A stretch of 64,000 nt of DNA from Scenedesmus sp. PABB004 (Eukaryota): positions 806,001 to 870,000 of the forward strand of contig JABVCE010000013.1 in assembly GCA_014905635.1 (NCBI GenBank). The letters run 5' to 3'. The translations under genes were made by a program, and so were the position numbers. Under the pieces are notes generated by a model. It worked only from the letters and a program-made list of their open reading frames with translations, did not search any database and was not told the origin of the DNA. Below are positions 13,770 through 51,572 of the stretch, one piece after another (positions within the stretch are counted from its first letter, which is position 1; the number at the start of each line of letters is the position of its first letter).

Positions 13770-14480
13770 ATGGCGCCCGACGCCGGCCACGCGGGCGCGG
13801 CGATCTGCGAGGTCTGCGGCAGCGGCCACGCGCAGGCGGTGCTGGTGCTGTGCAACAACCACGGCCCCGAGTGCGCAGCAGCGCAGAGCGCGGCGCGGCG
13901 CCGCTGCCGCCCGCCCGCCCACGGCGCCGCGCCGCCGCCGCCGCCCTGACGCGCGCCGCCGGCCCGCCGCCGCCGCGCAGCCACCGCGTGGGCTGCCACT
14001 CGTTCTGCATGCCGGGCGACCGCTGGCGCGCGGCCGGGCTGAGCAAGGACTTTTTCTGCTCCACGTGCAGCGACTTCCGCAAGCGTGCGTGCCGGCGCGG
14101 CGCGGCGCGGCGCGGCGCGGCGCGGCGCACAAGCCGTAGCAGCAGCAACAGCAGCTGCCCACGCCGCTGCCGCCGCCGCCGCCGCCGGCCCCGCAGGCGC
14201 GTCCGAGGCGCTGCACAGCGCGCAGGAGGCGCGGCGGGCGGAGCTGCTGCGCCGGCGGGGCAAGGCCGACGCGGGTGCGCGCCCGCGCAGCGCCGGCCGG
14301 CGCGCCCCGCGCGAGCCGCCCGCACGCGCCCTGAGCCTCCTGAGCCCCGGCGGCCGCCGCAGGCGACGCGCCGATGCCCGACCTCGTGCCGGTGCCGGCC
14401 GCCGCGGCGGTGCGCGCCCGGCCCGCCGCGCTCGTGAGCGTGCCGCCCTCGGAGCAGATGCGAATCGATCACGCGCGCCA

Positions 14481-14522
<42 letters not shown>

Positions 14523-17500
14523 CGGCGCCGCGGCGCGCACGCCGCGCGGCGCCGCGCAGCCGCCGGTGTCGGCGGCTGCGGCGGCGGCCGCCGCCGCCGC
14601 CGACGCGGCGGTTGAGCAGAGCAAGCGCCTGATGGCGGCGGCGGCGCGCGGGCGCGGCGGCCGCGACGGCCGCGGCGGGCGCGGCGGGCGCGGTGGCCGC
14701 GGCGACGCGCCGCCGGGCGCGGGCGGGGCCCTCGGCTCCCCGCCCGCCACCGTGGGCTCGCCGCGCGCCACCATGGGCTCGCCGCGCGCCGCCGTGGGCA
14801 CCGCGGCGCGGCGCGGCGGCGGCGCGGCGGCGGCGCCCGGGCCGGGGCGGGGCCCGGACCAGCATGAGTACACTGTGAGTGTGGTCATGGTTCACATCAG
14901 CGGCCAGGTGGTGCAGGCGGGCGTCGCGACGACCGACGAGGCGGAGGTGCGTGCGCCCCCGCGCCGCGCGCCGCCGCGGCGCGCCGAGCGGCCGCCGACG
15001 CGGCCGCGTCCGCCGCCGACGCGGCCGCGTCCGCAGCTGCACGGGGTGCTGGACCTCCACGGCACGCTGAAGCGCAGCCTGGGGCTCGAGGCGCACGCGA
15101 CGGCGGCGCAGAGCGCCGCGTTCCGTGACTCGCTGCTGCCGGAGCTCGCCGCGCTGGCGCCGGGGCAGGAGAAGCGAGCGCTCACCGGCGGAATGTTCGA
15201 CCTCGACCTGCACCCCAGGCGCGGCAGGGGCTGGGCAGGGGCAGTGGGAGCGCGCGGGGCAGGCAACCGCAGCGGCGGCGGCTGCGCGCCGCCGCCGCGA
15301 CCCCGCGCGCTCCGCCGCGGCTGCCGCCCGCAGCATCGCGCGCTTCAGTGACGACCCAGCGCTCCGCTACTTCCCCCTCAAGTTCTTCCCCGCCCAGACC
15401 AGCCGCATGCGCATCAAGTGAGCGCGCACGGGGCCAAGAGCCGCCGCTGCCGCGCTGCGCCGTGCTGCGCTGCGTCCGACGGCGCGCCCGCGCCCGCGCC
15501 CGCGTGCCGCCGCAGGGAGCAGCTGCGCGACCGGCGCCGCTTCCTGGTGGCCAGCATGGGCGAGCGGCTGCTGGTGCTGCTGCCGACGGAGACGGGCGAG
15601 CTGCTGCTGCTGCAGCCGCGGCACCTGCAGGACACTGACGCCATGGTGGCAGAGGTGGTGGCCTCCGTGATGCGGGTGCGGGGGCCGCGCGGGGGAGGCA
15701 GGGCGCTGCCGAGGCCCCGCGCCCGAGGCCCCCGGCGCGGCGCCCACCCACGGCGGCTCCCCCGCCGCCGGCACGGCCAGGACCGCAACCTCGGCGACAC
15801 GCCCTCCCAGCTGGAGGAGCGCAAGGCGGCGGCGGAGGGCGACGCCGCGTGCGGCTCGCAGGAGGCGGAGCAGGAGGCGGAGCACGAGAGCAAGGACGCT
15901 GTCATGCAGGAGCTGGTGCAGCTGCACCAAGTTCGCCAGCAGCAGCGGCGGCAGCAGCAGGCCGGCGCGGCGGCACGGCAGGCGGCGCCGGGCCGCAAGC
16001 AGCTGCCGAGCGAGCAGCAGCAGCTGGAGCAGGAGCAGGAGCAGGGCGCGGACGCGAGCGGCGACGACGGCTCGTCGCGGCCGGCCCCGCCTGCGGGCGT
16101 GCAGGCTGAGCACATAGAGCCGCAGGGTTCGTCCGCTCCGCTGACCGGCCTGCCGGTGTGCGAGCTGCCGGAGGGCATGCGGCACGCGGCGCGGCAGCGG
16201 CGTCTGGCGCAGCGCGCGCAGCAGGCGCAGCAGGCGGAGCAGCAGGGTGCGCAGCTTGAGCAGCTGCTGGCGCAGCAGGCGCAGCAGCTGCCCGCCGGGA
16301 CGCCGCCGGGGCCGCAGCAGCAGTCGCCGGCCTCGTGGTTGCGGGCGGTCGCGAACGGCCTGCGTCATGCCACGCCCGGATCGCCGCTGCTGCACCAGGC
16401 GCGCCCGCCCAGCCCGGCGGGCGGCCCCACGGGCAGCGCTAGCACGCGCGGCGCGGTGGTCGAGGCGGCCCAGGGCTCCTCGCTCGCGCAGCTGCTGGCA
16501 GCCACGGGCTGCACCGGCGCCGGGGCCGGCGGCGGCGGCAGCCAGAGCGCCACCAGCGCGCGGCGCGGCGGCGCCGGCGCAGCGCTCAGCCCCCAGCGCA
16601 TCATGCCTCAGATTGGCGACCTGGCGCCGCTGCCGCAGCTGAGGTGAGGCAGGGGCGGCGGCGGGCGCGCGCGCGGCGCTGCCAGGCGGACCGCGCCCGC
16701 CCGCGCCCGCCCATCCGCCCCGTCGTCTGCCGCGCCCGCAGGCTGTTCCTGCTGTGCTTCCCGGCCGAGGCGCTGGCGCCGGGCTGCCCGCTCTCGGCGC
16801 TCGTGGAGGCGGCGGGCGCGCTGTGCGCCGCGGTGCACGCCGCGCCGAGCGCGCAGCACGCGACGCCGGCGGCGCTCGCGGCCGCGCTGCGCGCCGCGCT
16901 GCGGCTGCCCGCTGCGCCGCCGCTCGCGGCCCAGGCGCAGTCGCCGGGGCCCGCCGCCCCGCCCGCCGTGGATCTCACAGCGAGCGACGACGACGAGGGC
17001 GAGCCCGCCGCCGGCTGCTGCGTCGTCGTGGTGCTGCCGGAGCACGCGGCCGCCGCCGACCTCGCCGCCGCGCTCGCGCCCGCGGGGCTGCCGCTCTGGC
17101 GCCTGCTCGCGGCGCGCGCCGCGGTGTTTGTGCAGGGCGCCGGCGAGGGCCTGCTGAGCTGGCTCGGGGCGGCGGCGGCCGCCGCGTCCGCGCCCGGCGG
17201 CGCGCCGCTGCCCGCCCGGCTGCCGGCGCACCTGTCCACCTACCAGGCCTTCCGGGGCGGCCTGGCGGTGGTGGCCAACTGCACCACGCTCAAGGCCGCG
17301 CCCAGGGCACAGCTCACGCGCCTGCTGGGCCTGCTCGCGGCCGCGGGCGCCGCCGCGGCGGCCGCGCGCGGCGAGCTGGCCATGCCCGGCGAGTGGGCGT
17401 TGGTGCTGCCGCGGGACCACCTGGCGAGCCTGCCGGCGAAGCGGCGCGCGCTGCTGGAGCCGGGGCTGGCGGCGGGCAGGTGCGCGGCGCCCGGGGGCGG

Positions 17501-18111
17501 CGGCGCGGCGGCAGCACGGCGGCGGGGTGGCGCGGCCCGCGACCCTTCGCTGGCACGCGTGCAGATGAACGCGCGCGGCGTGCTCCTCCCGCAGGGTGGT
17601 GCTGCTCGACGACAAGCTTGCGCCCGGCACGCTGCTGCACGACGAAGAGCTGCCGGCCTCGGGTGCGCGCGCGTGCCGCCGCGACCGCGACGCCCCTCTC
17701 GGGAGCGCCCCCCATCTCACCTCTCACTCTCCTCGCATGCGCCACGCGGCGCCCTGCGCAGGCGAGGGCCTGCCGGACGCGCTGCTGGGCAACGCGCTGA
17801 GCCTGGCGGTGCAGCGCCAGGCGGCGCTGCGGCTGGTCGTGGTGGCGGTGCCGGACGTGGACGAGGCCCACCCGCCCAGCCTGGCGCGGCCGCGCGGCGA
17901 GGCGGAGCAGCGGACGCAGCAGCAGCCGCAGGAGCCGCGGCCGCCGCTCGACCCCGTCGCGCGGGCGGCAGTGCGGCGCACGCTCGCGGCGGGCGCGCGC
18001 GAGGGCCGGCTGCTGGTGGGCACGGTGGGCCAGGTGCTGCAGCTGCTCGAGGCGGTCGCAGCGCCGGCGGGCGGCCAGGCGGAGGCGGCTGCGGGCGGGC
18101 GCGCGCGGTGA
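13770..18111 (+). CDS. Large uncharacterised PHD-finger protein (paralog A) with RGG box, putative SPOC-like and C-terminal TASOR/Chp1-like domains; multi-exon
   Basis: Spliced N-terminus ICEVC...LVLCNNHGPDHRVGCHSFC...FFCSTC (PHD spacing); [20 protein letters not shown]-terminus alignable to the gene at 46853-51572. Gene existence is well supported; domain names beyond PHD are inference. Confidence 0.65.
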
Positions 18112-18318
18112 TGGTGCCGAGCCGCGTTGTGCAACGTGCGGCCTTACACCACAACTCGCCGCTCGACTGGCGCCCGCCCGCTCGCTCGCTGCCTCGGCCG
18201 GCCGGCGCCGGCCGGCCGGCGCTCAGCCAAACCGCCGCGACGCCGAGCGCTCGCGCCGTGCGCGCGCGGCTCGGCCGCCGCGCGACTCACAACGCCTCAT
18301 GGGGAGCCGAGGAGCTGA

Positions 18319-19306
18319 TCACTCCTCCTCCTCGTGCTTGGCCTTGGGCTCCTTCTTCTTGGGCAGGAGCATGGTGTGGATGTTGGGCGGCACGCCGGCT
18401 GCGGGGCGCGCCACGGCGCCGCGCGGCGCGCGCGGCGGCCGCGTCAGCGCACCCCCGCGCCCGACGTCGGGCGGGCGGCCCCAGCGGGCAGCCGGCGCGC
18501 GGTGCGGTCTGGCCAGCGCGCGGCGGGTGGCCGCGCGCGCACCGTTTGCGATGTGCACGTTGCCGAGCAGCTTGGAGAGCTCCTCGTCGTTGCGGATGGC
18601 CAGCATGACGTGGCGCGGCAGGATGCGGTTCTTCTTGTTGTCGTGCGCGGCGTTGCCAGAGAGCTCCAGCACCTGGCGCGGTCGCGGGGCGGCGGGCGGA
18701 GGGCGACGTGGCGCGCGCGTCGCGCGCATCGCGCACGTCGCGGCGCGCAGCGGCGCGCCGCCGCGCCTCGGCCGCGAGGTACTCGAGGACCGCCGCCACG
18801 TAGACTGGCGCGCCCGCGCCCAGGCGGTCGGCGTAGCGGCCTGCAGGGCCAGGCGGTGCGGGCAACCATTGATGGGCCGAGCCGCACACATGCACAGCAC
18901 AGCAGCGGCGGCAGCCGAGCCGCAGAACAAGCCGCACCCTTGCGGAGGTAGCGCGCGATGCGCCCCACCGGGAAGGACAGGCCCGACTTGAGCGAGTGAG
19001 ACACGGCCTTCTTGCGTTCTGCGCGCGCGGGTCGCGGCGGGTGTCGGCGCGCGGCAGCAGCGCGCGCGCGCGGCGCGCGCCGCCCGCCCGCCCGCCACCC
19101 GCCCGCCCCGCGCGGCTGTAGAGGGCCACCCGACCACGCACAGGTGGTGCGCCGCCCGCCCGCCGCCCCGCGGCGCGGGGCCGGCACAGCGCGGCGGCGC
19201 GCAGCAGCAGCGGTGGAGCGGGGCTGCCGAGGGCCGCGCCGGCCCGCCCCCCGCCGCGCGGGAGCGGCTCACCGCCCTGGGACTTGCCCTTGCCGCGGCC
19301 GGACAT
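18319..19306 (-). CDS. H2A: Histone H2A variant (4 introns)
   Basis: [132 protein letters not shown]. Confidence 0.95.
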
Positions 19307-19506
19307 GGCGCGAGTTGGCGCGGCGACGGCGGCGGGCGCGGACGGCGGCGGACGCGTGCAGCGGCGGGCTGCGGCGGGCTGTGGGCGCTCTGGGAGCGTG
19401 GGACGGGGCGCGGAAAGCTCGTGCGCGGTCGCGGGGCGTGGGGCGGGGATCGCGGCAGCTCAGCGGCTGTTCTTCGAGGTTCAACGCTCCCGCCGCGCCC
19501 GCGCGC

Positions 19507-21473
19507 TCACAGCTGCGCGACCAGGCGCTCCAGCATGCGCAGGGAGGTGTCGTAGTAGCCGCCTGCGGCGGCGGCGCGCGGCGCACGCGTTCGGTGCGGG
19601 CCGCGCGAGCGGCGGCAGCGCGCGCGGCGCCTCGCCGAGCCCCGCTGCGGCGCGGGCGGCGCCTCGCCGCGCCCCCCGCGCGCGGCGCCTCGCGTCGTGA
19701 GCTGCTCCAAGCTGCTCCGAGCTGCTCCAAGGCCGCCACGCCGCGCGCGCCGCACCGCCAAAGAGGTTGGTGTGGTTCAAGTAGTGGTACAGCAGGTACA
19801 GCTCCTTCCGCTTCTCAGCGAGCGGTGCGGGCGGCAGCACGGCGCGATAGCTCGCCCAGAAGTCGGCCGAGAGACCTGCACACCAGCTCATGCCGAACTC
19901 GGCCTCGTGATGCCCGTAGTACGTGGCGGGGTCGAAGATCGCCGGCGCGCCGCCCGGCCCGACGCCGGCGATGTTGCCCGACCACAGGTCGCCGTGCAGC
20001 ACGCTCGGCCGGATGTCGCCTGCGCGGCGTGGCCGCGCGCGGCGGCGTGGCCGCGCGCGGCACGCGGCGCGGGCTGGGCGCGCGCCGGCCTGGGCGCACG
20101 CGGCGCCGGGGGGCGCGGCACAGCGCGCAGCGCGCAGCACGCAGCGCGGGCGGGCAGCGCGGGCGGGCGGGCGCCTGGGCGCGCGGCGTGCCGCGCAGCG
20201 CGGCGGCGGCGCACCCGCAATGTCCTCGAAGAACACCTCCAGGTTGTCCAGCAGCTTGTCGCCCAGCTGGCTCATGCGGCGGTCGCCTGGCGGCGACGGC
20301 CGCGGCGGCGGCGGCGAGCGGCGGCGTGGGCGCGCTCACGTGGGCGCTGCGCGCGGCGGGCGGCGCGCGGGCTTGACTGGCGCGCGGGGGCGGCTCGCCG
20401 CACCGAGCAGCTGCAGCTGGTGCCGTAGGCGGCGCTCGCGGTAAAAGTCGACCCAGCTGTCCATCCAGCCATTGGGCTGTGGCGTGGCGCCGATGGTGTT
20501 GTCGACGCAGAACCCGAACCTGCCCGCGCGCGCCTCGGGGTCCTGCGCCCGCGTGACGGCGGCCGCGCGGTGCGGATTGGCCCGCCGGCCGGGCCGGCCG
20601 GCCGGCCGCGGCGGGCCGGGATGGGGCAGCCAAGCTCCGCGCCGCGCCGCGCCGCGCCGCGCCGCGCCGCCGCCGCAGCCGCGCGCAGCCGCCGCAGCCG
20701 CCGCGCGCGCGCACCGCCGGCTCGGCGAGGTGCATGCGCGCGAGCTGGCGCCCCATCTCTGCCTGGTCGACGCGGCCGCCGAGCGGGAGCGCCTCCATCA
20801 CGATGAAGCTGCCGCGGCCGTTGGGCGCGGGGCCGACGTGATACACCTCCGGTACGCGCACCGTCTTGGTCGCTGCGCAGGCACGGGGCAGCGCCGCCGG
20901 GTCGTGTCGCGCGCCGCCGGGCGCGTCGCGCGCCGCCGGGCGCGTCGCGCGCCGCCGGGTCGCGTCGCGCGAGCGGCGCGGCGCGCCCGCGCACCGTGCA
21001 TCGCGCGCAGGCCCTGCGCCTCGCCCTGGAACATCGAGTCGTCGCGGCCGCCCATGGCGAGCTTGACGAACAGCTGCCGCCCGCCCGCGGTGTCGTAGAT
21101 GTACGCGGAGCTCCAGTTCGAGCCGCCCACAAACGTCTCCTTCACGACTGGCCCCGCCCCCAGGTTGGCCTCGATCCAGTCGGCCGCCGTGCTCTGCACC
21201 CTGCGCCGCCGGCGGCGGCGGCGGGCGGGCTGGGCGCGCGCCGCGCGGCAGGCAGCCGCTGCGCGGCGGGCAGCCGCGCGGCCGGCGGCCGCTGGGCGGC
21301 GGGCAGGTTGGCGCTGCCGCCCCCGCCGCCGCCGCGCACTTGGCAGACGACGCCTGCGGGCGCATCGTGGTCCTGCTCCGGCAGCAGAGCGACCTGTGCG
21401 CCGCTGCTGGCAGCAGCCCGCCGCCGCTGGCCGGCGCGGCGCGCGTGCGCAGCAGCGCCCGCTGCTGCAGCAT
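19507..21473 (-). CDS. FN3K: Protein-ribulosamine/fructosamine 3-kinase, plastid (spliced; alternative ATG at 21551)
   Basis: FVK...MFQGEAQGLRAM, VRVPEV, FIVMEAL, FGFCVDNTIGATPQPNGW, PSVLHGDLWSGN, IFDPATYYGHHEAEFGMSWCAG, LYLLYHYLNHTNLFG. Confidence 0.93.
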
Positions 21474-21686
21474 GCTGCTGGGGCTGCTGCGGGCAGCGCC
21501 AGACCAGGTCGCGGTGACCGGCACGTAGAACGTGGCGCCGAGTAGCTGCATGACGGCCTGGCCGGGCCTCCGGCGCAGCGAGCAGTCAGGAGGGCGGTCA
21601 CTTGGGGTTCGCTGCTGCGCCGCCGCCGCCGCCGCCGGCGTACTTCCCGCCCAGCAGCCTCCTCCGACACCCAGACAGCGCGCGCC

Positions 21687-22292
21687 ATGCATGCGCACCG
21701 CGCCGCGCCCCCGCGCGCCCGCAGCGCGCCGCCGCCCGCCGCGCGGCGGCGGCCCCGCTGCCGCCGCTGCTGCCCGGCCCCGCGCGCGCAGCCGGAGCGG
21801 CCGCCCAGCGCCGGCAGCGAGCCGTTGCCTCCGCAGCAGGAACAGCAGCAGGAGCAGCAGCAGCAGCAGGGCCTGGATGGCGCGCTGGGCGCGGCCGGCG
21901 CGGGCCTCGCGGCGGCACTGGAGCGGCTGCGCGGCGCTGCGGCGGCCTGGGGCGGTGGCGGCGCCCCCGCTGCCGGCGCGGCGCCGCTGCGGCCGCGCGT
22001 GCGGACCTACAGCGGCATGCTCTCGCAGGCGCAGCGGCCGCGGCGGCAGCAGGAGCAGCAGGAGCAGGCGCTGCCGGAGCGCCTGCGGCGGCTGCTGAGC
22101 GGGCAGTTCCTGCGCGGCGGCGACACCGCCGGCGGGCAGGGGGAGCGGCAGCCGCTGGAGACCGTGATGGCGGCGGTGCAGTTTGAGCTGGCGGCGCAGC
22201 AGGCGGCCGCCGCCCAGGCCGCGCCGCCGGCCGCGTCCGCGCAGGCCGGCGAGCCGCTGTCGCAGGGCGCGCGGCATCAAGCGCAGGACGTT

Positions 22293-22378
<86 letters not shown>

Positions 22379-23501: not shown

Positions 23502-23740
23502 CGCGGGGAGTGGGCCGGGAGCTGGCTCGGCACGGGGATGCACGAGGCTGAAGGAGGTCTCGCAGGGCGGGCAACGCTCTCCGCCTGCACGCGTTACTCG
23601 TACGGGCCCGGTGCCGCGCCGCCGCCCGCAGCAGCTGCCGCCGCAGCCGCGCGCGCATGAGCGCGCCGGCTGCCCCGCCGCAGCTGCCCCGCCGCCGCGC
23701 GCCGCGGCCGCGCCGCCGCCGGCGCGGCGCCGCTGCTGGC

Positions 23741-26195
23741 TCAGCTGGCCGGCGCGGCCGCCGCCTCCTTGGCCTCCGCCGCGGGCGCGCCGGCCGGCGC
23801 CTCGCCGGCCGCGGCCGCCGCCGCCGCCGCCCTGGCCGCCTTCTCCGCGCGCGCCTTGGCCTTCTTGCCCTGCCCCGGCGGCGACGCCTTGCCCTTGGCC
23901 TTGCCGCCCGCGTCGGCCGTGGCCGCCGCCGCCGCCGCGGGCGCGGGCTCAGTGACGTACGGCACCGCCTCGTCGATCCGCGCAAACACGGGCGCTGGCT
24001 CCGCCGTCGCGTGCCCCGCCGCGAGCTGGCCCCACGCCGTGTCGGCCCAGCTCACGCGGCCCTGCAGCGGCGCGCCGCCGAGGCCGAGCTGGCCGTACAT
24101 GCGCGCCGAGAGGCCGGGCGTGACGGGGCTGAGCGCGACCGCGAGGATGCGCGCCGCCTCGAGCACCGCGACGAGCACGCGCCCCGCGGCGGCGCGCTCG
24201 GCGTCGTCGCCCTTCTTGAGCGCGCTCCACGGCGCCGTCTGCTCGAGGTAGAGGTTGCCCGCCGCCGCGATGCCCAGGCACGCCTCGACGGCCGCGTGCG
24301 GCGACAGCCGCGCGTAGGCCGCCGCCGCGGCGGGCACCGCAGCCTCGACCGCGTCCCGCAGCGCGTGGCCGGCGCCGGCCGGCGCCGCCTCGGCCGCGCC
24401 CGCCGGCAGCGCGCCGCCGCAGTTTTTGGTGAGCAGGCCGAGCGTGCGGTTGAGCATGTTGCCGACCGCGTTGGCGAGGCTCGCGTTGACGGTGTCGCGG
24501 AACGCGGCCTCGCTGAAGTTGCCGTCCTGGCCAAAGGCGACCTCCTTCATAAAGAACAGCCGCACCGCGTCGGCGCCGTACCCCGCCACGAGCGCCTCGG
24601 GGTCGAGTGTGTTGCCGAGCGCCTTGCCCATCTGCGGCGGGGAGGGCGGGAGCGAGGGAGGGAGGGAAGGAGAAGGAGAAGGGGCGGCGGCGCGCGCGCG
24701 ACGCGTGACGGCGGCGCGTGCCGTGACGGCGCGCGCGGCGCGGGCGCGGGCGTGCGCGCGGCGGCGGCCCCTGCTGCGAGCGCTGGCGCGCCGTGGCGCG
24801 GCCCCGCGGCCGGCCGGCCTCAACCCTGAACCCTAGCCCACCTTGAGGCCGTCCTTGGTGAGGAAGCCGTGCCCAAACACGCGCCGCGGCAGCGGCAGCC
24901 CCGCGGAGAGCAGCATGCCGGGCCAGTAGATGGCGTGGAAGCGGAGGATGTCCTTGCCGATCACGTGCACGTCGGCCGGCCACCCGCGCGACAGCGCCGC
25001 GCCGACCGCGCCGCCGCCGCCGCCGCCGCTCGCGCTCGCGCCGTCGCCGTCGGCGAGCGGGACGAGGCCGCTGAGGTAGCCGTTGAGGGCGTCAAACCAC
25101 ACGTACACCGTGTGGTCCGCGTCCTGCGGCAGGCGGATGCCCCACGGCGACGCCGCGGCGGCGCGCGAGATGCTGAAGTCGCGCACGCCCTCGCGCACCC
25201 AGCCGAGCACCTCGTTGCGCCGCGCCGGCGGCGACACAAACGCGTCGTCGCCGTCGCGCGCGAGCAGCTCCTCCAGCTGCGCCTGGTACTTGCTGAGCGC
25301 GAAGAAATAGTTCTCCTCCTCGCGGTGCTGGCACGGCTTCCTGGCAGGCTCACGGCGCGGCGGGGCGCGGCGCGGCGGCGTGAGCGGCGGCTGCGCGCGG
25401 CCGAGGGCGCACGCGGCAGGCGGCTGCCGCTGCGCGCCCGGCGTGAGCTGCGCCGCGCCTGGCCCGAGCTGCCGCGCGCCCGGGCTGAGCTCCCCGGCCG
25501 CTGCCAGGGCTGCTGCCAGGGCTGCCAGGCTGCTGCCAGCCTGCTGCCAGCGCTGCTGCTCCCCGCGCCACGCCGCCCGCGCTGTGAGCGCCAAGGCACC
25601 CCCTTTCCGACGGCGCTTGCCCGCCGCACCTGTGCGTGGGGCAGGTGTGCTCGGCGTCGAGCTCCTTCTCGTCCTTGTACTCCTCGCAGTCGACGCAGTA
25701 CCAGCCCGCGTAGGCGGCCTTGTAGATGTCCCCCCGCTCCCACACGCGCGTGAGCACCTCCCGCACCAGGGCCTCGTGCCCCGGGTCGGTGGTGCGCACG
25801 AAGCCGTCGTACGCGACGTCCAGCGCCGCCCACAGCGCCTGGTACTGCTGCACGATGTCGTCGCAGTGCTGCTGCGGGCTCATCCCGCGCGCCTCGGCTG
25901 CGAGCGCGATCTTCTCCCCGTGCTCGTCGGTGCCGGTGAGGAAGCGCACGCGCCGCCCCGCGAGGCGCTGGTAGCGCGCGAGCACGTCCGCCGCGATGGT
26001 GGGGTAGGCGCTCCCCATGTGCGGCTTGGCGTTCACGTAGTACAGAGGCGTGGTCAGCGTGAACGTCTCGGCCTCGCCAGATGCCGAGCAGGCCGCGCGG
26101 GGCCGCGGCGAGGGGCGGGGGCGCATGCCCCAGCCTGGCCGCCGCCCTGCCAGCGCGCACGACGCGCCGCAGCGCCCCAGGGCGCGGGCCTGCAT
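23741..26195 (-). CDS. metG: Methionyl-tRNA synthetase, organellar (bacterial type), 3 exons
   Basis: TTPLYYVNAKPHMGSAY (HIGH-like), FLTGTDEHGEKI, YCVDCEEY, YVWFDAL, IGKDILRFHAIYWP, GLKMGKALGN (KMSKS-like). Confidence 0.95.
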
Positions 26196-30113: not shown

Positions 30114-30196
30114 CGCGCAGGGTTTGCGCGCACCACGCGCCCGTAACCCCTCTCGCCCAGTGAGATCAACCGCTCCCCTCCCCCCTCCCTGCGCGA

Positions 30197-30877
30197 TCAG
30201 CTGAGGATGGCCTTGAACTCAGCAAAGTCTATCGTCCCGTTGAGGTCCAGGTCGGCCTCGCGCACGAAGCGGTCGATGTCGAGCGTGAGCTCGAACGCCT
30301 TGATCGTCGCGCGCAGCTTCTCGAGGCGGATGCGGCCGCTGCGGTCCGCGCCGCCGCCGAGCGCGACGAACGCGTCGAGCGTGTCGGTCTCGCAGCCAGC
30401 CGGCGCCGCGGCCTTGTGCTTGACGACGACCGCCAGGAACTCGTCGAACGAGACCTCCCCGCTGCCGTCGATGTCAACCGCGTGGATCATGACGGCCAGC
30501 TCCTCGTCGCTCGGCGTCTGCCCCATCGCAGCCAGCGCGGACCTGAGCTCGCGTGTGTCGATGGTGCCGCTGCCGTCCTTGTCGAAGCTGCGTCAGGCGC
30601 GGCGGGCGGCAGATCGCTTTCAGGAGGAAGGGCGCGCCGCAGGGGCTGCAGGAGTCGAGCGGCGGGAACGGCCACCGCGGCGGCGGCCGGCGTCGGCAGC
30701 GCCTGCCGTGGCGCACACGAGCTGGCAGCGCTGTGCTATCTGCCCAGCGCGCTGCCTGCGGGCTGCGGATCGTGCACGTGCGCGGCGCGGCTGCGAGCAG
30801 CGGCGCAGCGCTCTCGCTCGCCTCGCGAACGCCGTGCGGCTCAGCTCAAGCTCCTCCTGGCTCAGGCGCGCCGCCAT
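30197..30877 (-). CDS. DLE1: EF-hand calcium-binding outer-arm dynein light chain LC4 (calmodulin-like)
   Basis: FDKDGSGTIDTRELRSALAAMGQTP, VDIDGSGEVSFDEF, DTLDAFVALGG...GRI, FELTLDIDRFVREADLDLNG; DTLDAFVALGG matches LC4 rather than calmodulin or centrin. Confidence 0.85.
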
Positions 30878-33781: not shown

Positions 33782-33796
33782 GCCGGCTGCTCGCCG

Positions 33797-36755: not shown

Positions 36756-39700
36756 TCAGTCAATCTGCGGGCGGCGGCGGCGCCGGCGGCGGCCGCTCAG
36801 CGCGCGGCAGCCCTCCGCTGCCAGCGGACGGCCGCCCCCCCCCCCCCCCCCCCGCCGTCCGCACCTTGATGGCGCCGTAGATGGCGCGCACGAACCAGAG
36901 GCACGCGTAGAAGCCGATCGTGCCGGTGAGGCAGAAGAAGCCGTAGCTCACGACCTGCCGCGCGGCGCGGCGCGGCGCGGCGGGCCTCGGCGCGGGCGCG
37001 CGCCCGGCCTGCGGGGGGCGCGGCGCCGCGGCGCCTGCCGCCGCCGGTCCCGGGGCGCCCCAGGGGGCAGAGAGGCGGCTCAGCGCCCTCCCTCCCTCCC
37101 ACCACCACACCCCCACACAAACGCACCGCCATGTAGACAAAGTACAGCAGCATCGGCACCACCTGCGCGCGGCGGCGTGGCGTGGCGTGGTGTGGTCGGG
37201 CGCGAGCATAAGTTGTTGTTGTTGGGGCGCGCGCGTGCGTGTGCGAAGGGCGAGCGTGCGTGCGCGTCGGCGGCGGCGGAGGCGCGCGGCGGCGGCGGCG
37301 GCGGCGGCGTGCCGCGCCGCGCCTTTGTGATGTCGAGCTTTGTGAAGAAGTAAAAGGCGGAGTAGGCAAAGAGGTAGAGCGCCGACGCGCCTGCACAGCG
37401 GGCGGGCGGCCGGGCGCGACATGACGCGCGGCGCCCGGCTCCGGCCAGCGCGGCCGAGGCGGGCGGTCGGGCGGCCCAGCTGCGCACGCGCGGCGCACCG
37501 CTGGTGAAGTAGGACCGCCACCACCAGTTGTAGTCCTCGGCGCAGAGCTGGAAGTAGGTGAGCACGATCGCGATCTCCGCGCACGTGAGGGCGAGGATGA
37601 CAAACACGAGCGCGAGGAAGCCGAAGAGGTAGTAGACTGGCCACGTTTGAATCGGGGAGTTTGAATCGAGGAGTTTGAATCGAGGAGTTTGAATCGGCCG
37701 ACGTGCGGGCGGCGCGGGGCGGGGCGGCGTCGGCGGGGTGGGTGGGCGGCGGCGGGGTGGGCGCCGCGCCGCGCCGCGCGGGGCGCGGCCGCCGGGCCCC
37801 GGCGCTGGCCGGCCGCGCGCGCGCGCCCGGCGGCGCGCCCGCCGGAGCGCCCGCCGCGGCGCTGCGCGCGCACACTGGTGGAGCCAGACGCTGGTGAGGA
37901 TGAAGAAGAGCTCGATGAACACCGCGCCAAACGGCAGCACGCCGCCCACGGCCGCCGTGACGGCGGGGTGCATCCACCACGGCTGCTCGGGGACCTGGCG
38001 AGGGATCTGCGGCCGCACGGGCGCGCCGGGCGCGCGCGCGTCGGCGGCGGCGGCGGGCGGGCGGCGCCGGCGGGCGGGCGCGCCCGCGGCGGCCCAAGTC
38101 CTCGCCCTGCGCGCGGCGCCCGTGCTCCCCGCGCGCGCGCGTGCCTTGTTGGTCCGCACGGGGTCCTCCGGCGCGGGGGCCTTGAAGCCATAGTAGGACC
38201 CCACAAACACGAGCGGCACGCTCACGCCAAACCAGAGGAACGTGAGCGCGAGCAGCGTGCCAAACGGCACCGCGCCGCTGCTCTTCTGGCCCCAGATGAG
38301 CAGGTCGAGCACGAAGAACACGCCAAAGACGACGCCCGGGAAGAGCAGCGCCGTGCGCGCCGTCATCGCCTTCCACTGCGCGCGCGCCGCGCGGCGTGCG
38401 CGGCATGCGCGGTGCGCGGCGCGCGCGCGGGCGGGGCGGCGTGGGTGTGCGCGGGCGCGTGCGCGCGTGTGGGCCGGTCCCGCGCTCAGCAGCGCACGGC
38501 GGCGGGGCGCGGCCGGTCGCGCCCCCGCCGTGCGCCGCGCACCTGCTCGCCGCGGAAGGACTTGTACAGCCGCGCGGCCGCGTACCCGGCGGCGGCGCCC
38601 ATGAACACAAACATGAGCACCATCGCCGTCATGAGCCCGCCGCGGTTGCTGGGGCTGAGGAAGCCGAGCAGGGCGAAGAGCGTGGTGATGAGCAGCATGC
38701 CCAGGATCTGCACGCCCACGCCGACGTACGTCGCGAGCAGGCTGCCGTTGGCGGGCGGGCGCAGCACGTCGCCGTGCACGAGCTTCCACCCGCTCTCCTC
38801 CGCCGCCTCCTCCTGCGCGCGGCGCGGGCCGGGCGTGGGACGGCCGCCGCCGCGCCCGCGCGTGCGCCCGCGCGTGCGCCCGCGCCGCTGCGCCCGCCGC
38901 GTCTGCGCCGCCGCATGCCTGTGCGTCGAGCGCGTTGTACTTGGCGATGTCGCGCCACAGCGTGCGGACCATGATCATTGCGACCATGCCGGAAAGGAAC
39001 AGCACAATCATGACGCTGTTCACGATGCTGTGGCGGCGGCGGCGGCGGCGCGGTGGCGGCACGCGCGCGGCGCGGCGGCGGCGGCGGCGGTCGCTCAGCC
39101 CCTCGGCGCGCCGCGCGCCGCGGCCCCGGGGCCACCCGCCGCCGCCCCGCCGCGGCGCGGCGCGCGACGCGGCGGCGGGGCCCGCGCCGCGCGGCGGCGG
39201 CGGCGCGCGCGCGCACCTGAACCAGTGGATCTGGTCGTCCGTCATCTTGAGGTACGTGTCCCACCGCGACGCCCAGCGGATCGTGCTTTGCTGCGCGGCG
39301 CGGGCGGGCGGGCGGGCGGGCGGCGGCTCGGCGGCCGGCCGCGGCCGCGCGCGCCGGCACGGTCCGCGGCGTCACTCCTGCGCTGCTCGCGCCGCTCGGC
39401 GAGCTCCTTCTTCTCTTCTCACCGTGAACTTGACGTCGTAGGTGAACACCACCTCCTCGCCCTCCCCGACCTGCTGCGGCGGCTGGCTGTGGCTGACCGC
39501 GATCATGCGCCCCGGGTTGCACGTGCTCAGCGCCGGCGGCGCCTCGCCGGCGCCGCCCCACTTGCCGTCGGCGGCATGCTTCACGCTGAACGCCTCGACC
39601 TGGACCGGCGGCGCGCGCGGCGGCGGGGGTTGAGCGGGCTAGGCGGCCGGCGCTGGGCCGGCGGCGGGCGCAGCCGCGGCGCGCCGGCCCTGCCGGCGCG

Positions 39701-39889
39701 GCGAGCCGCTCGCCGAGCACACGGCGCGGCGCGGCGCGGGCGCGCGCGTCACACCTCGAAGCCGACGATGCGCGAGAGGTCGGTCGCGGCGTCGCGGTTG
39801 TAGAGGATGTTGAACCGCAGGTGGTTGTGCAGGAAGAAGAGGACCTCCTTCTGGCCCTCCAGCGTCGCCTGCGGTCGCGGGCCCGGCAC

Positions 39890-39920
<31 letters not shown>

Positions 39921-43510: not shown

Positions 43511-43929
43511 GCGCCGGGCGGCGCGCCGCCGCCCCGGCCCCGCCCGCTGCAGCGGCAGCGGGCGGCGGCGCTCGCGCGGCGCGCGAGCTGTCGCGCGGAC
43601 GCGTTGAAAGCGGCGTGGTTCAGGCCTCCTCGCCCCGCCCTCCTAGCCGCCCGTCCTGCATTCAACAGCACACCGCCGAGCACGTGCACCGCGCGGCAGC
43701 CGCGCTGCTCGGGGCCGCCCGACACAGCAGATCGCACTCCGCTCCGCGATGCAGCTCGCGCAGCAGCGCGCGGCCGGTGCCGCGGGCGTGGGAGCGGCAG
43801 GTGCGGGGGTCGTGTGTTCGAGTGAGCGCGCCGCTGCATCGCCAGCGCCACGGAGCCGGGCGCAGGGCGGCCTGCAGCGCGCAGCAGTCAAGCCCTAGCG
43901 CTGCCCCCGGTCTGCTGGCTCTCGCCAGC

Positions 43930-46520
43930 ATGGCCGTGAGAGCCCTCACGAGCCCCTGCCGCCACCCGCAGGCCGGCAGCGCGCCGCCGCCTTCCGCCCC
44001 GCCCTGCGGCGCCGCCAGGTGCGGCGGCGGGCGCTGCTGCTGCTGCCCACCGCGCCGCGGGCTTGGGCGGCGCACGCTGCGGCCGCCGCAGCAGCAGCAG
44101 CTGTGGGCGCACCAGCTGCACCAGCCGCGCCAGCAGCAGCACCCGCCGCAGGCGGCTCCAGCCGCCCGACGCCGCCGCGCGCGCCGCGTGCCGGCGCTGG
44201 TGCCTCGCAGGTGCTGCGCGTGCGCGGCAGCGTGTCGACGGCGCCCGAGTCGTTCACCATCCCCGCGGTGCCCGACCTCATCCCCGATGGCCCGTGGAAG
44301 AAGGTCGCCGGCGGCGTGTGCGCGGCCAAGGGCTTCAAGGCCACCGGTGCGGCCGCGCGGCGCCGTCGGCAGCTGCGCGGCGCCGCCGGCATCGCCGCGC
44401 CCCCCGCAGCCTCGCAGCCGCGCGCCCCCGCTGACCGTGCGGCGCGCGCAGGCGTGTACGCGGGGCTGCGCGCGGCGGGCAAGAAGGCGGACCTCTCGCT
44501 CGTCGTCGCGGACGAGCCGGCGGTCGCGGGCGGCGTGTTCACGCTCAACGTCATGTGCGCCGCCCCCGTCACGTACTGCAAGGACGTCCTCGCGCGCAAG
44601 CAGCGCGTCAAGGCGGTGCGCCACGCGGCGCCGCGCAGCGCAGCGCCACGCGGCGCCTCGCGGGCGAGCGGGCGGCGGGCGGGCCTTGCGCGACTGCAGA
44701 CGGCGCGCCTCGTCTTCGTCGTGCGCAGGTGATGACCAACGCGGGGCAGGCCAACGCCGCGACGGGGGACCAGGGCTACGAGGACGCGGTCAACTGCGCG
44801 ACCATCGCGGCGGCGAGCCTCGGCGTCACGCCCGACGACGTGCTGCTCATGTCCACGGGTGACCCGCCGCCGCCGCCGCCGCGGCTGCGACCGTGCCGGC
44901 CGCGGCTGGCTCGTGCGCGGGCAGCGCGCCCACACGGGCCAGACAGGCCGCGCGGGCGCCGCCCACGCGCGGCCGCGCCGCCGACACGTGGCCGCCGCCG
45001 CCGCCGCCGCGTGGGCCAGGCGTCATCGGGCGGCGCATGAAGATGGAGGCCTTTGTGCCGGCCATCCCCGAGCTGCCCAAGTCGCTCGGCGCGGGCGCGG
45101 ACGACGCGCACCGTGCCGCGGTCGCGATCACGACGACCGACCTGGTCAGCAAGGAGGCCGCGCTGCAGGTGCGCGGCGGCCGCGCGCCGCCGCCGCGAGC
45201 GCCCGCCGCGGCGCGCCACCGCTGCCGCCGGCGCCCACCGCCCGCCGCGTGACGCCCGCGCGGCGCCAGGTGAGCATCGGCGGCGCGACGGTGCACATCG
45301 GCGGCATGTGCAAGGGCAGCGGCATGATCCACCCCAACATGGCGACCATGCTCGGCGTCGTCACGTGCGACGCCGACGTCGAGCCCGAGACCTGGCGCGG
45401 CATGCTGCGCCGCGCGTGCGACGCGAGCTTCAACGCGGTGCGCGGCACGCGCGCGCGGCGCGCGGGCGCTGCGCGAACCGGCCGGCGGCGCGCCCCGGTG
45501 CCTGAGCCGCGCGTGAGAGCCGCGCGCCGCCACCGCCGCCGTGTCGTGGCGCGGCCAGATCACGGTGGACGGCGACACGAGCACCAACGACACCGTCATC
45601 GGCCTCGCGAGCGGCAAGAGCGGCGCGCCGCGCATCGCCGAGGCGGGCAGCGCCGACGGCAAGGCGCTCGAGGCGGCGCTCACCGCGCTGCTGCAGGTGC
45701 GCGCGCGCGGCGCACGGCCCTGGCGCGGGCGCCCCGCGCCGCGGCACGCACGCCCCTGCGCGGCACGGCCTGCGGGCGCGACCCGCCGCCGCGCCGCCGC
45801 CGCGCCGCCCCCGCGCGCGCCCGCGCGCCGCGCCGCCGGCAGGGCCTGGCCAAGGCGATCGCGTGGGACGGCGAGGGCGCGACGTGCCTCATGGAGATTG
45901 CCGTCGCGGGCGCGGCGAGCGACGCGGACGCGCGCGCGGTCGCCAAGAGCGTCGCCGGCAGCAGCCTCGCCAAGAGCGCGATCTTCGGGCACGACCCCAA
46001 CTGGGGCCGCATCGCCGCCGCGGCGGGCTACTCGGGTGCGCGGGCGCTCCGCTCGGGGCCGGCGCGGGCGCCGTCGCGCCCGCCGCGCGGCTCGCGGCCC
46101 CCGCCCCGCCCCGCTCACGTGCGACGCCCTCCCCGCCGCGCGGCGCGGCGCCTCTCCCCTCTACCGCGCGCGCAGGCGTGCAGTTTGACCAGCGCGACCT
46201 CGCGGTGCGGCTGGGCAGCATGCAGCTGATGGAGGCGGGGCAGCCGCTCGCGTTTGACGCCAAGGCCGCGAGCGGCTACCTCAAGACCACGTGCGCGGCG
46301 CACGGCACGGTGCAGATCTTTGTCAGCGTCGGCAAGGGCCCCGGCACGGGTGCGGCGGCGCACGGGCGGGGCGGGCGGGCGGGCGGGCGGGGCGGGCGGG
46401 CGCAGCGCGAGCGGGCGGGCGCGAGCGCGCGGCCTGCGCGCGCCGCGCCGCGCAGGCATGGCCTGGGGGTGCGACCTCTCCTACGACTACGTCAAGATCA
46501 ACGCCGAGTACACGACCTGA
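43930..46520 (+). CDS. argJ: Bifunctional ornithine acetyltransferase / glutamate N-acetyltransferase ArgJ, plastid (spliced)
   Basis: [94 protein letters not shown]. Confidence 0.96.
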
Positions 46521-46852
46521 CGGCCGAACGCGCTGGGGACAGCCCTGCCTGCCGCGTGCGCGGCGACGGGCCGCGCAGCGCGGCGCCGCGCCGCGCGCGC
46601 TGCGCGCGCTGTCCGGCAACCGGACGCGGCAACCGCCGCAGCGACCGGGCGCGTCTCGGTGGCGGCACCAGCAGCGAGCCAGGCGTCCCGCGAGCGCGCG
46701 CTAGAAAGCCGCGCATGGTGTCGCGGTGGTCCAGTTCGCGGTCTTGCGCGCCCCGCCCGCCACCTGGCGCGCTCCGGCCGCCCCCCGCCCCGCCGGCCAG
46801 TGCGCCGCCTCCGGTTCGTGCCGAGGGCGGCCAGCGCCGCCTCGGCGTCGCC

Positions 46853-47409
46853 ATGGCGCCCGCCACGCTGGTCTGCGAAATCTGCGCGCGCCTCGGGGAC
46901 TGCATCCCCTGCGCCAACGCGCAGTGGTGCGCCGCCTGCGCCCGCGGGCGGCGTCGACAGCCCCCACCCGCCGCTGAGGCGACGCTCCGCGCGCGCTGCC
47001 GGTCCCAGGTGCAAGAGCGGGCGCTGCCCCATCTGCTTCGTCGCGATTCTTGCTGCCCCGGAGCAGCACGGCCGCGTCTTCGACCTGATCTTCACCTGCG
47101 AGAGCTGCTGCGCCTACGGCAACAACTGCTGCGTCGCAGATGGTGCGGCGCGCGGCGGCAGCGGCGGCGGCAGCGGTTGCCGCTGCTGTCGTCTGCGCGG
47201 CGCCGCCGCTCAGCCGCCGCGCCCGCGCCCCGCGCGCGCGCAGCCGACATACCTGCAGCCCAGCCCGTGGCGGCCGCGGCGGCCGCCGAGGAGCCGGCGC
47301 CCGTGGCCAAGCGGCAGCGGCCGGCGTCGGCGGGCAAGGCAGCAGATGGCGGCGGCAACGAGCAGCCGCAGGCAGCGAAGCGGCAGAAGCCGGCCGCAGC
47401 AGCGGCGGC

Positions 47410-47442
<33 letters not shown>

Positions 47443-48142
47443 GCCCGCGCCCAAGGCCAAGGCCAAGGCCAAGCCCAAGCCCAAGGCGGCGGCGGGCAAG
47501 GCGCAGCAGGGGCCGGCGGCGCAGCCCAAGCCCGCGCGCAGGCCGGCGGCGCTGACGCTCGCCGCGCCGCTGGTGCTGGCGCCAGAGCCGCCGCCGCCGT
47601 CGGTGGAGGAGCCGCCGCCGGTGGAGGAGCCGCTGGCGGCGCCGCCGGCGCAGCCCGCAGCCGCGGGCGAGGCGCAGCAGGGGCTGCCGTCGCCGCCGCC
47701 CATGGCGCTGCCCTCGCCCACCAGCAGGGCCGACGCCATCCCGGTGGCCGAGATCTCGCCGGCGCGCAAGCGCGCGCGGGGGCAGCGGCCGGCCAGCGAC
47801 TCGGACGACGGCGCGCCGCTGGCCAAGAAGGCGCCGCCCGTGCCCAAGAAGGCGCCCACGGGGGCGGCGCCGGCAAAGCAGCCGCTGCCGGCCGCGCCCG
47901 CGGCCAAGAAGGCGGCCAAGGCCGGCGCCGGCGGCGGCACGGCGGCGGCTGCGGCGATGCTGGCGCGCTCGGGCGCCGTGGCTCGCGCCGCGGCGGCGGC
48001 CGCAGACGCGCCGCGCGCGGGCAGCGCGGCGGCGCGGCAGCAGCAGGCCGCCGCCGCCCAGCGGCTGGGCAAGGCCGTGGCGCTGCCGGCTGATCCGAGC
48101 AGCACGCACACGTCCGACGGGTTGCCGCTGGTGCGCCCCGGC

Positions 48143-48207
<65 letters not shown>

Positions 48208-51200
48208 GGCGGGGGCCAAGGCCGGCGCGGCGGACGCCTCCCGGCCGAAGCCCAGCGGCGCCAGGGGCGCCAGCGCCGGCGCCGCCAGCAGCAGGCTGGG
48301 AGGCGCGCGCGCGCTGCCGGCGCTGCAGCGCGGGCCGGGCAGCGGCGCCAGCGGCGAGCCCGCCGCGCCGCTGCTGCCAGGCGGCATCAAGCCCGCCACG
48401 GACGACATGCGGCGCCGCGCGGAGGAGCGCCAGCGCAAGGGGCTGCTCGCGCAGCAGGGCCGCGCGGGCGGCGCCGCGCCGCTGCCCCGCGCGCCCAGCG
48501 ACGCGGCGCACCAGGCGGCCGCGCCGGCGCCAGCGCCGGCGCCCCCGCCGGCGCTGGCGGGCCCGCTGCGCAGCACTTTCAGCCTCAAGACCGCCATCGA
48601 CAGCATCAAGGTGCGGGCGCCGGCTCGGCCCGGGCGACGCCGCGCTTGGGAGGGCAGCGCGCGCAGCCCGCGCGCCGCCCGCGCGCCGCCCGCGCGCCGC
48701 CCGACGCGCCGCCCTCCGCCGCGGCGCAGCCGCAGCAGCGCGGAGACACGCCGTCGGACGACCCAGCCGAGCAGCACGAGCAGCCCGCCGCGCACGTGCC
48801 CGCGGCGCGCAAGTGCAGCACGGTCGCGCACGCGTACAGGCTGCAGATCGTGTGCGGCGACCAGGACGTGGTGCGCAGCAGCGGCGCGCCGCGCGCGCGG
48901 CGCGCTCGGCGGCGGGCCAGCACCGCTGGCCGCGGCGGCCGTGCCCGCCGGCGGGGCGGGGCGACCGAGCGCCCGGCGCCCGCGCCGCGTGGCGCGCGCA
49001 GGCGGTGGAGGTCAAGCCCGAGCTGTTTGGCGGCGCGCCGCTGCCGATGCTGCTGGAGCTGCACCACAGCACGTCGTACCTCGACGGCACGCTGCTCAAG
49101 CGCAACGCGATGGACAGCCGCGTCAGCAAGGAGAGCATGCACGCCGTCGGCGCCGACTTCAGCCGCGCGGTCGTGTACCTGCGCGAGCGCGCGCTCGGCA
49201 ACACCAACCGCAGCATGCCCCAGGTCGTGCGCGAGATGGTGCGGGGCAAGCAGTACCTGCGGCTCGCGGAGAACAAGCTGTCGATGTACCTCGCGCCCAT
49301 GCTGCGGACGCCTGAGGGCGGCAAGGAGCTGGTGGACTACGACCACGTGTGAGCCGCTCCACCGCGCCGCCCGCCCGCCCGCCTGACAGCGCGCGGCGCT
49401 GGCGCTCTGAACCGCGCGCCGGCGTGCGCCTGTGCGAGCGCTGGCCCCGGCCCAGCGCGCTCCCCTGACCCGGCGCGCCTCCCCGCGCCCCGCCGCGCAG
49501 CACGTTTGCGCCCGGCGAGGACGTCTTCGACCGCGTCTACGACGACCGCGTGGCCATGGTCAACTACGTCCGCCCCGGCGAGCAGGTCGTCAAGTTTGAC
49601 GCCGCCGAGGTGCTCGCGCTCGTCGCCTGTGACGCGGGCGAGCCCGCCGCAGCGCTGGACGCGCCGCCGCCCAAGTCGACGTGGAACCCCAGCGTCGTGG
49701 CCAAGAAGTCGAGCCTCAAGGGCAGCGGCAGCAGCGGCGTGGCGGCGGCGGCGGTGAGCGCACGGGCGTGCGCTGGAAGGGAGACCTGCGCCGGCGCGTG
49801 CGGCTGGAGCAGCCCAGCGCAGCGCACGCACGGGGCCGCGCCCGCCCGGGCCCGCGCCAAGCCCGCCCCCTGGCGCCGCCCTGCCCCGCTCGCGCCCGCC
49901 CGCTGCGCGCAGGCGGCGGCTTCGGTCGTCGCGCCGCCCGCGCCGGCCGTGGCGCCTGTGGCGGCGTTCATGGCGGACGACGACGACTTCCTGGCCGACG
50001 ACGCGGGCGTCATCGGCGGCATCGGCGCCTTTGGCGGCGTGCGCATCGACGGCGGCGTCGGCGGCGGCGGAGGTGACGGCGGCGGCGGCGGCGGCTTCAT
50101 GGGCGACGACAGCTTCGTGGACGCCGGCCCCCACGCCCACGCCCGCAACGGCCACGCGCCGGCCCTCGGCAGGCTCTACACCCCCACCGCGCCGCTGCCG
50201 GCGGCGCTGCCGCAGCCTGCGGAGCCACCCCCGCAGGACCACCGGGCGCCGATCACGCCCGAGCAGGACCACCAGCCGCTGCCGCTGGCGCGCGAGACGA
50301 GCCTGATCAGCGGCGGCCTCATCGAGCGCGCGCTGCGCCGGCCCGCCGGCGCGCCACCGATGACGCCTTGGCGCGCGCTGTGTGACCGCATCAACGCGCA
50401 CGGCCTCAACATCGCGGTGCACGTCGACGCGTCGCTTCACGCCGACCAGGTGCGCGCTCCCACGAGGGTCAGGCGGGTGGGCGGGTGGGTCGACGGGTGT
50501 GCGGGGAGCGAGCCGCCGCGCGTGCGCAGTGCGGGGCCGCCGCCCAACGAGACCTCGCCGCCGCGATCTTGGCGCCCGCGCGCGCAGCTGGCCGGCCTGC
50601 CCGAGTGGCTGCGGAGCCGCGGCGCGACGGTGACCTTCCAGGTCGCGGGCGCGCCGGCGCCGCCGGCAGACGGCGTCGACGTGCTGCTCGTGAGCGCCGC
50701 GCACGTGCACGACCAAGGCATGGAGGGGCCCAAGGCGTCGCTCGCCGTCAACAAGTTCCTGGCAGAGGGCGCGGTCGTGCTGACGGAGGCCTTCATGCAG
50801 AAGCTGAGGCACACGACCGGCGCGTTGCGACAGGACATGGCCGAGCACGCGGGCCAGGGCCACATGCAGTTCTTCTCGCATGGTGCGGAAGGGAGCGCAG
50901 CCGTGTCTTGCGCGGCCGCGTGCCTAGCCGCGTGCTTGCGCGTCGGCCGCCGACATGCGCCGTTTGGTGAGCGCCGCGCCCGCGTGCCGCCACGCACCAA
51001 CCCGCCGTGCAGGCGTGCACCTGCTGCTTGACGACACGCTGGTGCGCAGCCTGCCGCTAGAGCAGCTCAAGGCGCTCATGCGCGCGTTGGAAACGGCGGC
51101 GGCGCGCGACGTGCCGCGCGACCGCCCCGCGTTCAAAGCGTACGTGCGCGACAAGGCGGCGCGCAAGCAGCTCGCCGCGCACGTGGCGGGCTCGGCGGCG

Positions 51201-51572
51201 GGCATGTTGGAGGAGTTGCCCGCCTCGTTTCGGAGTTCGAGCCGCGCCGCCGACTCGCCGGCGGTCATCCGCGACGCGGCCAAGGTGCGGCGCGCGTTCA
51301 GGCGGCGATGCGGAGCCGCCAGATCGCATCCGGACGCCGCGTTGAGCACGCGTGCGCCGCCGCCGTCCCCCGCGCAGGCGATCCACAACCTGACCAAGCG
51401 CGGCGACGCGCTGCGCTTCATGGTCGTCGTTGTGCCGGACCCCTCGACTCCCGGGCTGAGCGCGGCGGACGTGGAGCACATCAACAACGTGCTGCGCTGC
51501 GGCTACCAGCAAAAGACGATCTTCACTGCGACGAGCAGCCAGGCGATTGAGTTCCTCAACGCGCTGAAGTGA
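46853..51572 (+). CDS. Large uncharacterised ADD/PHD-like Zn-finger protein (paralog B) with putative SPOC-like and C-terminal TASOR/Chp1-like domains; multi-exon
   Basis: Spliced N-terminus CEICARLGDCIPCANAQWCKSGRCPIC...FTCESC; K/P/A-rich linker with basic NLS-like patches; globular exons at about 48790-49680 and 50360-51572. Confidence 0.65.
48146..48205 (+). repeat. (CAG)20 repeat encoding Q20
   Basis: Counted from the sequence. Confidence 0.95.

Follow-up and report, generated by a model that had tools for sequence, protein, structure and literature searches.

Two large multi-exon genes in a G+C-rich window

We analyzed a stretch of 64,000 nucleotides from the green alga Scenedesmus sp. 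PABB004 (contig JABVCE010000013.1, positions 806,001 to 870,000, forward strand), hereafter the window, with emphasis on two large genes designated A and B. The predicted product of gene B ends in a conserved domain for which structure modelling suggests a PIN-like fold, and we conclude that zinc-finger proteins of chlorophytes contain, in this domain, a candidate new family of PIN-like domains.

The DNA of the window (1-64000) is of nuclear type and exceptionally rich in G+C, with 73-81% in every 2-kb bin, and because almost all frames are open at such a composition, lists of open reading frames (ORFs) are meaningless on their own. The coding frame is marked instead by the GC content at third codon positions (0.90-1.00), and the codon-position GC plots demonstrated frame changes at short intervals. 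Introns in the window are short (about 80-160 nucleotides) and very uniform, with G^GTGCG(C/G) donors and GCAG^G acceptors (the caret marks the splice boundary). The splice consensus was learned from the ArgJ gene of the same window, in which exons recognised by homology are separated by at least four introns of about 105-145 nucleotides each, and was combined with codon log-odds in a dynamic-programming model of genes A and B. Coding exons were found on the + strand throughout 13770-18111 and 46853-51572. In gene B, a GTGCG/GTGAG donor and a CAG acceptor flank all eight introns, whose lengths range from 82 to 159 nucleotides; such consensus sites occur in eight of the ten introns of gene A, the weak donors belonging to the introns at 14566-14862 and 15195-15333.

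The 3' part of gene B could be compared with a hypothetical protein of Scenedesmus sp. NREL 46B-D3 (COO60DRAFT_533288, 211 amino acids), which covers 100% of the last exon. The last junction of B, FFSHG^VHLLLDD, has consensus splice sites, and the homolog is contiguous there (FFAEGVNLLLD), so at the sequence level this junction is independently confirmed. The splice assumed in this region by the first-pass annotation, an earlier reading of the same DNA, is supported accordingly. Its two large multi-exon + strand genes are real, judging by frame plots and splice sites; both open with MAP (ATG-GCG-CCC) followed by CExC, and the three pairs of C-terminal blocks that it quoted are all present in the frames it gave.

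It appears very improbable to us that the models are wrong, with the finger, central and C-terminal parts belonging to separate genes or with some of the exons being non-coding. Almost every frame is open at 80% GC, the annotation of the Scenedesmus homolog treats it as a protein of its own, and two introns of gene A have poor donors. However, the third-position GC signal changes frame exactly at consensus splice sites in both genes, and both loci are bounded by neighbour genes (ArgJ, H2A and the Ulp1-like ORF). Moreover, the annotated start Met of the homolog aligns within the penultimate exon of B (MQK.. against FMQKL..), so its gene model is probably truncated.

The N-terminal finger of A, after splicing, has the spacing C-x2-C-x11-C-x6-H-x4-H-x2-C-x17-C-x2-C, near to the Cys4-His-Cys3 cross-brace of PHD fingers and not canonical, the fourth ligand being a His and the spacing unusual. 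The finger of B, C-x2-C-x5-C-x2-C-x5-C-x4-C-x2-C..H..C-x2-C-C with a run of seven Cys, does not follow the PHD pattern. The halves of each finger, searched separately, matched neither Pfam nor PDB sequences. The "own histone reader" of the first-pass annotation is reduced to the PHD-like arrangement of Cys and His in A, unconfirmed by any profile; the finger of B has another pattern.

Further downstream, the composition of the third exon of B (Ala/Pro/Lys/Gln-rich, with basic motifs) suggests a disordered linker and a nuclear protein. This exon contains a perfect stretch of 20 Gln codons (48050-48110, + strand). Gene A has a Gln/Glu/Ala-rich linker of its own in exon 9 (15781-16643). The central regions of A and B gave no Pfam or PDB sequence match, exon 5 of B had no homolog among proteins of similar length, and the central exon of B had no usable match in the ESM Atlas. 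The first alpha/beta unit in the C-terminal part of B had no Pfam match; by eye, this first unit displays a beta-alpha-beta-beta-alpha-beta-alpha order reminiscent of BRCT.

Among the neighbours listed in Table 1, the phosphatase, methionyl-tRNA ligase, EF-hand and EMP70 exons are ordinary housekeeping exons, which places genes A and B in a normal gene-dense chromosome context rather than in an island of repeats or transposons. The histone H2A gene and the Ulp1-like protease are ordinary eukaryotic genes as well.

Table 1. Genes, exons and regions identified in the window (positions counted from its first letter)
Feature	Position	Strand	Description and basis
Gene A	13770-18111	+	Predicted 11 exons, 1029 amino acids; frame plot and dynamic-programming model
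Gene A exons	13770-13870, 13981-14084, 14197-14274, 14363-14565, 14863-14946, 15037-15194, 15334-15417, 15516-15675, 15781-16643, 16742-17479, 17595-18111	+	
A, N-terminal Cys/His finger	13770-14084	+	PHD-like pattern; split by intron 13871-13980; DNA and spliced model
A, central globular region	14863-15675	+	Exons 5-8; coding periodicity
A, first C-terminal alpha/beta unit	16742-17231	+	Single exon; sequence
A, candidate PIN-like C-terminal domain	17232-18111	+	Intron 17480-17594 inside; resemblance to B family
Gene B	46853-51572	+	Predicted 9 exons, 1235 amino acids; frame plot and dynamic-programming model
Gene B exons	46853-46926, 47009-47142, 47244-48610, 48730-48870, 49002-49348, 49501-49753, 49913-50449, 50588-50882, 51013-51572	+	
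B, N-terminal Cys-rich finger	46853-47142	+	Not PHD pattern; split by intron 46927-47008
B, exon 3 linker	47244-48610	+	About 455 amino acids, low-complexity, Ala/Pro/Lys/Gln-rich, KRQR/KRAR-type basic motifs
B, central globular region	48730-49753	+	Exons 4-6; GC low at second codon positions, as is typical where a globular domain is encoded
B, first C-terminal alpha/beta unit	50360-50882	+	Candidate DomII equivalent; split by intron 50450-50587; sequence
B, last exon, PIN-like domain (predicted)	51013-51572	+	185 amino acids, ends at stop codon
NIF/CTD-like phosphatase exons	10160-12031	+	Housekeeping
Histone H2A gene	18322-19506	-	Pfam Histone_H2A_C, E 4e-9; tail-to-tail with gene A, about 200 base pairs past its stop codon
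Methionyl-tRNA ligase exons	23744-24832	-	Housekeeping
Calmodulin-like EF-hand protein exons	30200-30592	-	Housekeeping
EMP70 exons	38489-38974	-	Housekeeping
ArgJ (glutamate N-acetyltransferase) gene	44736-46520	+	Pfam ArgJ, E 1e-48; directly upstream of gene B
Ulp1/SUMO-protease-like ORF	51999-52565	-	Peptidase_C48, E 2.6e-4, just above Pfam cut-off; convergent on gene B 3' end

The last exon of gene B and its predicted fold

The database searches for homologs were run with gene B sequences. HMMER comparison of the last exon with 1.84 billion representatives retrieved two short JGI metagenome proteins (E 6e-5 and 9e-4), each covering one half of the exon, and a profile built from these three sequences led to seven proteins, the Scenedesmus homolog among them. 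The C-terminus is common to B and family member P0002; the Scenedesmus model continues for about 22 residues beyond it. The eight-row family alignment contains the conserved blocks LL[WL]DxT, F.A[FY]VR..[DE], [DE]LP, VIRDA.K, LR[FY]MVVVV[PA]D and T.I..AT.SQ. Judged by these alignments, the family of the last exon is real and conserved, and narrow as far as the searched databases show. A word-indexed search with the exon among longer proteins found no relative, and a metagenome scan gave no match. A similar scan with family member P0001 pointed to bacterial metagenome contig L001 (1-2389, with methyltransferase/EAL-type ORFs), which matched only via HFHNAPAH and was dismissed as a false positive.

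Profile searches assigned none of these sequences. No Pfam match rose above noise for the 12 frames, 11 exons and eight family members submitted, and PDB sequence searches found nothing relevant for the fingers, the central exons, the last exons or the family profile.

AlphaFold2, run on the eight-row alignment with B as the first row, produced one confident model (predicted local distance difference test score, pLDDT, 74.5; predicted template modelling score 0.70), in which helices alternate with five strands and one insert is disordered. The predicted structure shows, at the level of the fold, the three-layer alpha/beta/alpha arrangement of PIN domains, about five strands forming a parallel sheet and alternating with helices. 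In both fold searches the top structural match was the PIN domain of Chp1 (PDB 3TIX chain D, residues about 808-958; identity 8-9%), and the next rows contained PIN domains of SSO1118 (7.3), EST1A (7.1), HARP (7.0), Nmd4 (6.9 and 6.8), Rrp44 (6.8) and SMG5 (5.9). Conserved acidic residues lie just after or within three of the predicted strands, namely D of LLxDxT, D/E of VR..D/E and D of VVVV[PA]D. Canonical PIN nucleases carry their metal-ligand acidic residues at comparable places.

Altogether, the last exon of gene B has a PIN-like predicted fold and is the only assignable module of this gene. The PIN-like C-terminus that the first-pass annotation ascribed to both proteins is supported for B by the predicted fold, and would extend to A only through a weak resemblance to B. 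BRCT, which had been named there as a contrary outcome for this domain, was not the best fold match. Caspase (Peptidase_C14) came up as a candidate in ESM Atlas clusters at 0.80-0.81 for the last exon of B, a range often reached by shuffled proteins; it was rejected, as Scenedesmus has FFAEG and so lacks the His of FFSHG, and as caspases were missing from the first 50 rows of both fold searches.

Several observations speak against a PIN assignment. None of the eight family members matched a curated Pfam PIN/NYN family even at E 10, and Foldseek against the PDB had no match at E <= 0.001, its rows being generic Rossmann/TIM folds. The remaining four of the five AlphaFold models of B reached a pLDDT of only 42-52. 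The model of the ortholog was poor (pLDDT 55, with the second half below 60), and it is not independent of the B model because the same eight-row alignment lies behind both. Finally, a Ser (AT.SQ) follows the last strand at what appears to be the fourth canonical PIN acidic position, if our mapping is correct.

The C-terminal domain might be a three-layer alpha/beta/alpha domain of a generic kind that binds proteins or small molecules and has no role with RNA; it would be Rossmann-like, MGS-like (as in methylglyoxal synthase and the allosteric domain of carbamoyl-phosphate synthetase) or similar. A and B would then be unrelated and alike via their GC-driven, Ala/Arg/Leu/Val-rich composition. 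We consider this alternative rather unlikely. The generic rows of the Foldseek search are of the kind it predicts; the PIN domains at the head of the fold searches and the composition-matched comparisons described below stand on the other side.

Resemblance between genes A and B

The first-pass annotation regarded A and B as paralogs with one shared layout. Over their length this was unsupported, and the weak resemblance is confined to the last domain. BLASTP of the spliced A and B proteins found nothing (best E 8.5 and 9.7), and the arrangement of Cys differs between their N-terminal fingers. Smith-Waterman comparisons were at chance for the N-termini (z 0.30, with 107 of 300 shuffles reaching the score), for the central regions (z 0.38; 96/300) and for the first C-terminal alpha/beta unit (z 0.31; 188/500). 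Outside the last domain, these sequence comparisons detected no relationship between A and B.

The similarity above chance is modest and limited to the last 190-250 residues or so. For the last domain, z was 4.72, a value reached by two of 500 shuffles, and for the whole C-terminal part it was 3.73 (2/300); BLASTP of the two last exons in raw frames gave an E of 0.007. As a composition-matched control, a hidden Markov model (HMM) of the B family was run against the 704 ORFs that the six frames of the window contain at a length of 30 amino acids or more. Of the 703 ORFs other than B itself, the last exon of A ranked first (7.7 bits, in two colinear matches), followed by an ORF with an E of 0.61. 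Only one of 1000 shuffles of this exon beat the real score, while 17 of 500 shuffles scored higher when the 417-amino-acid C-terminal part of A was taken. The two proteins also share the hexamer EELPAS, a coincidence that 3.4% of 3000 shuffles reproduced. An alignment of the spliced C-terminus of A to the B-family alignment with hhalign was colinear end to end over 171 columns, with a P of 0.0042. The domain of A has an Asn at the first of the conserved acidic positions of the B family.

Other values from the same comparisons fail to reach significance. The probability given by hhalign was only 8%, the match of the last exon of A to the B-family HMM fell short of significance at E 0.12 (0.24 with the earlier three-sequence HMM), and the full spliced A protein had an E of 1. 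On balance, the last domain of A is probably, though not demonstrably, related to the last domain of B, having diverged very far from it.

Candidate function and comparison with known systems

We give about even chances to the reading that B is a lineage-restricted green-algal RNA-directed protein with a PIN-like tail, the last domain of A probably being a divergent copy. Such a protein would consist of a Cys-rich, putatively zinc-binding finger, a basic/Gln-rich disordered linker of about 450 amino acids, a central globular domain, a second linker, an alpha/beta unit and the PIN-like tip. It would probably be nuclear and act on RNA. The finger and the disordered regions would give targeting, and the PIN-like tail may bind or cleave RNA, or dock a partner of RNA processing or decay. 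PIN-tailed adaptors such as Chp1, SMG5/SMG6 and Nmd4 work in the same manner. Given the Ser after the last strand, cleavage would be a possible but not an assured activity of the domain.

TASOR and Chp1 share SPOC and a C-terminal DomII/PIN and act in silencing linked to methylation of histone H3 lysine 9 (H3K9me) (PMC7532188, PMC7619638); the first-pass annotation had described their common domains and role correctly. The order of parts is SPOC-DomII-PIN in Chp1 504-960 (PMC5391189), and SPOC/DomI, a long linker and DomII/PIN in TASOR and TASOR2 (PMC7532188, PMC7619638).

We consider it unlikely that A and B are true Chp1/TASOR relatives, in which a SPOC-like barrel, linker, DomII and PIN would form an RNA-linked H3K9me-type silencing scaffold and the zinc finger would serve as a chromatin reader. 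Equally doubtful in our view is the proposal that chlorophycean-type green algae possess such a scaffold (SPOC-like barrel, DomII-like unit and Chp1-type PIN) fused to its own zinc-finger chromatin reader, A being the PHD-bearing paralog. The best structural match in both searches, the Chp1 PIN domain, points in this direction, and so does a PIN-like tip that follows an alpha/beta unit, with a globular domain upstream across a disordered linker, as in the order described for Chp1, TASOR and TASOR2. The sequence searches do not: the family profile compared with all PDB sequences (3TIX chains included) retrieved no Chp1 or TASOR at E <= 10 (four rows, E 0.56-1.4), phmmer of the exons gave no Chp1 or TASOR match, and Pfam found no SPOC, DUF3699, DUF3715 or PIN match in any frame or exon. 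Of the HUSH/RITS-like scaffold proposed in the first-pass annotation, only the PIN element of the architecture is supported; a sequence link to Chp1/TASOR is missing and DUF3715 is absent.

If the scaffold proposal were true, the RITS/HUSH architecture would be older than the divergence of green plants from opisthokonts, and RNA-linked silencing in algae would be driven by it; TASOR (HUSH) and Chp1 (RITS) have so far been discussed as animal and fission-yeast scaffolds. A full-text literature search found no paper with both "TASOR" and "Chlamydomonas", and the titles and abstract openings of the literature on SPOC domain, PIN domain and green alga describe no such algal scaffold. A confirmed SPOC and DomII would also be informative about how HUSH/RITS-type machinery arose in evolution. 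On the conservative reading, a predicted fold is assigned to an orphan family that sequence profiles miss. A PIN-tailed zinc-finger family with Chp1 as its best structural neighbour is, in any case, a concrete candidate that can be tested for a part in the RNA-linked silencing of algae or in their nuclear surveillance of RNA, and transgene silencing is a practical obstacle in green algae.

Among other known systems, PHD-TLD-SPOC is one of two canonical SPOC architectures across eukaryotes, and the TASOR barrel is a SPOC-like DUF3699 (PMC10111866). PHF3, DIDO and Bye1 resemble gene A in the PHD-like Cys/His start followed by a downstream globular domain, but the algal genes have no Pfam match to the TFIIS-like (TLD) domain or to SPOC. 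Gene A also has a long alpha/beta C-terminal region, which to our knowledge is not part of the PHF3/DIDO/Bye1 architecture. The nonsense-mediated decay factors SMG5, SMG6/EST1A and Nmd4 differ in another way, as Pfam found no helical domain of the EST1/14-3-3-like kind in the algal genes; the algal central region looks, by eye, beta-rich and not helical.

The PIN domain of Chp1, for all its structural proximity, has no profile-level link to the algal PIN-like domain, and neither a chromodomain nor an RRM was detected in the algal proteins. These have predicted N-terminal zinc fingers, and we know of no such fingers in Chp1. No TASOR PIN domain was among the fold matches listed, and the algal genes differ from TASOR in having no Pfam match to the DUF3715 pseudo-PARP or to DUF3699 and in starting with short Cys-rich fingers. 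The likeness to TASOR and TASOR2 lies in the order of one or more globular domains, a long disordered linker, an alpha/beta unit and a PIN-like domain. Hence, membership in the Chp1/TASOR family is not established, and the defensible statement is that the algal protein works like a PIN-tailed scaffold.

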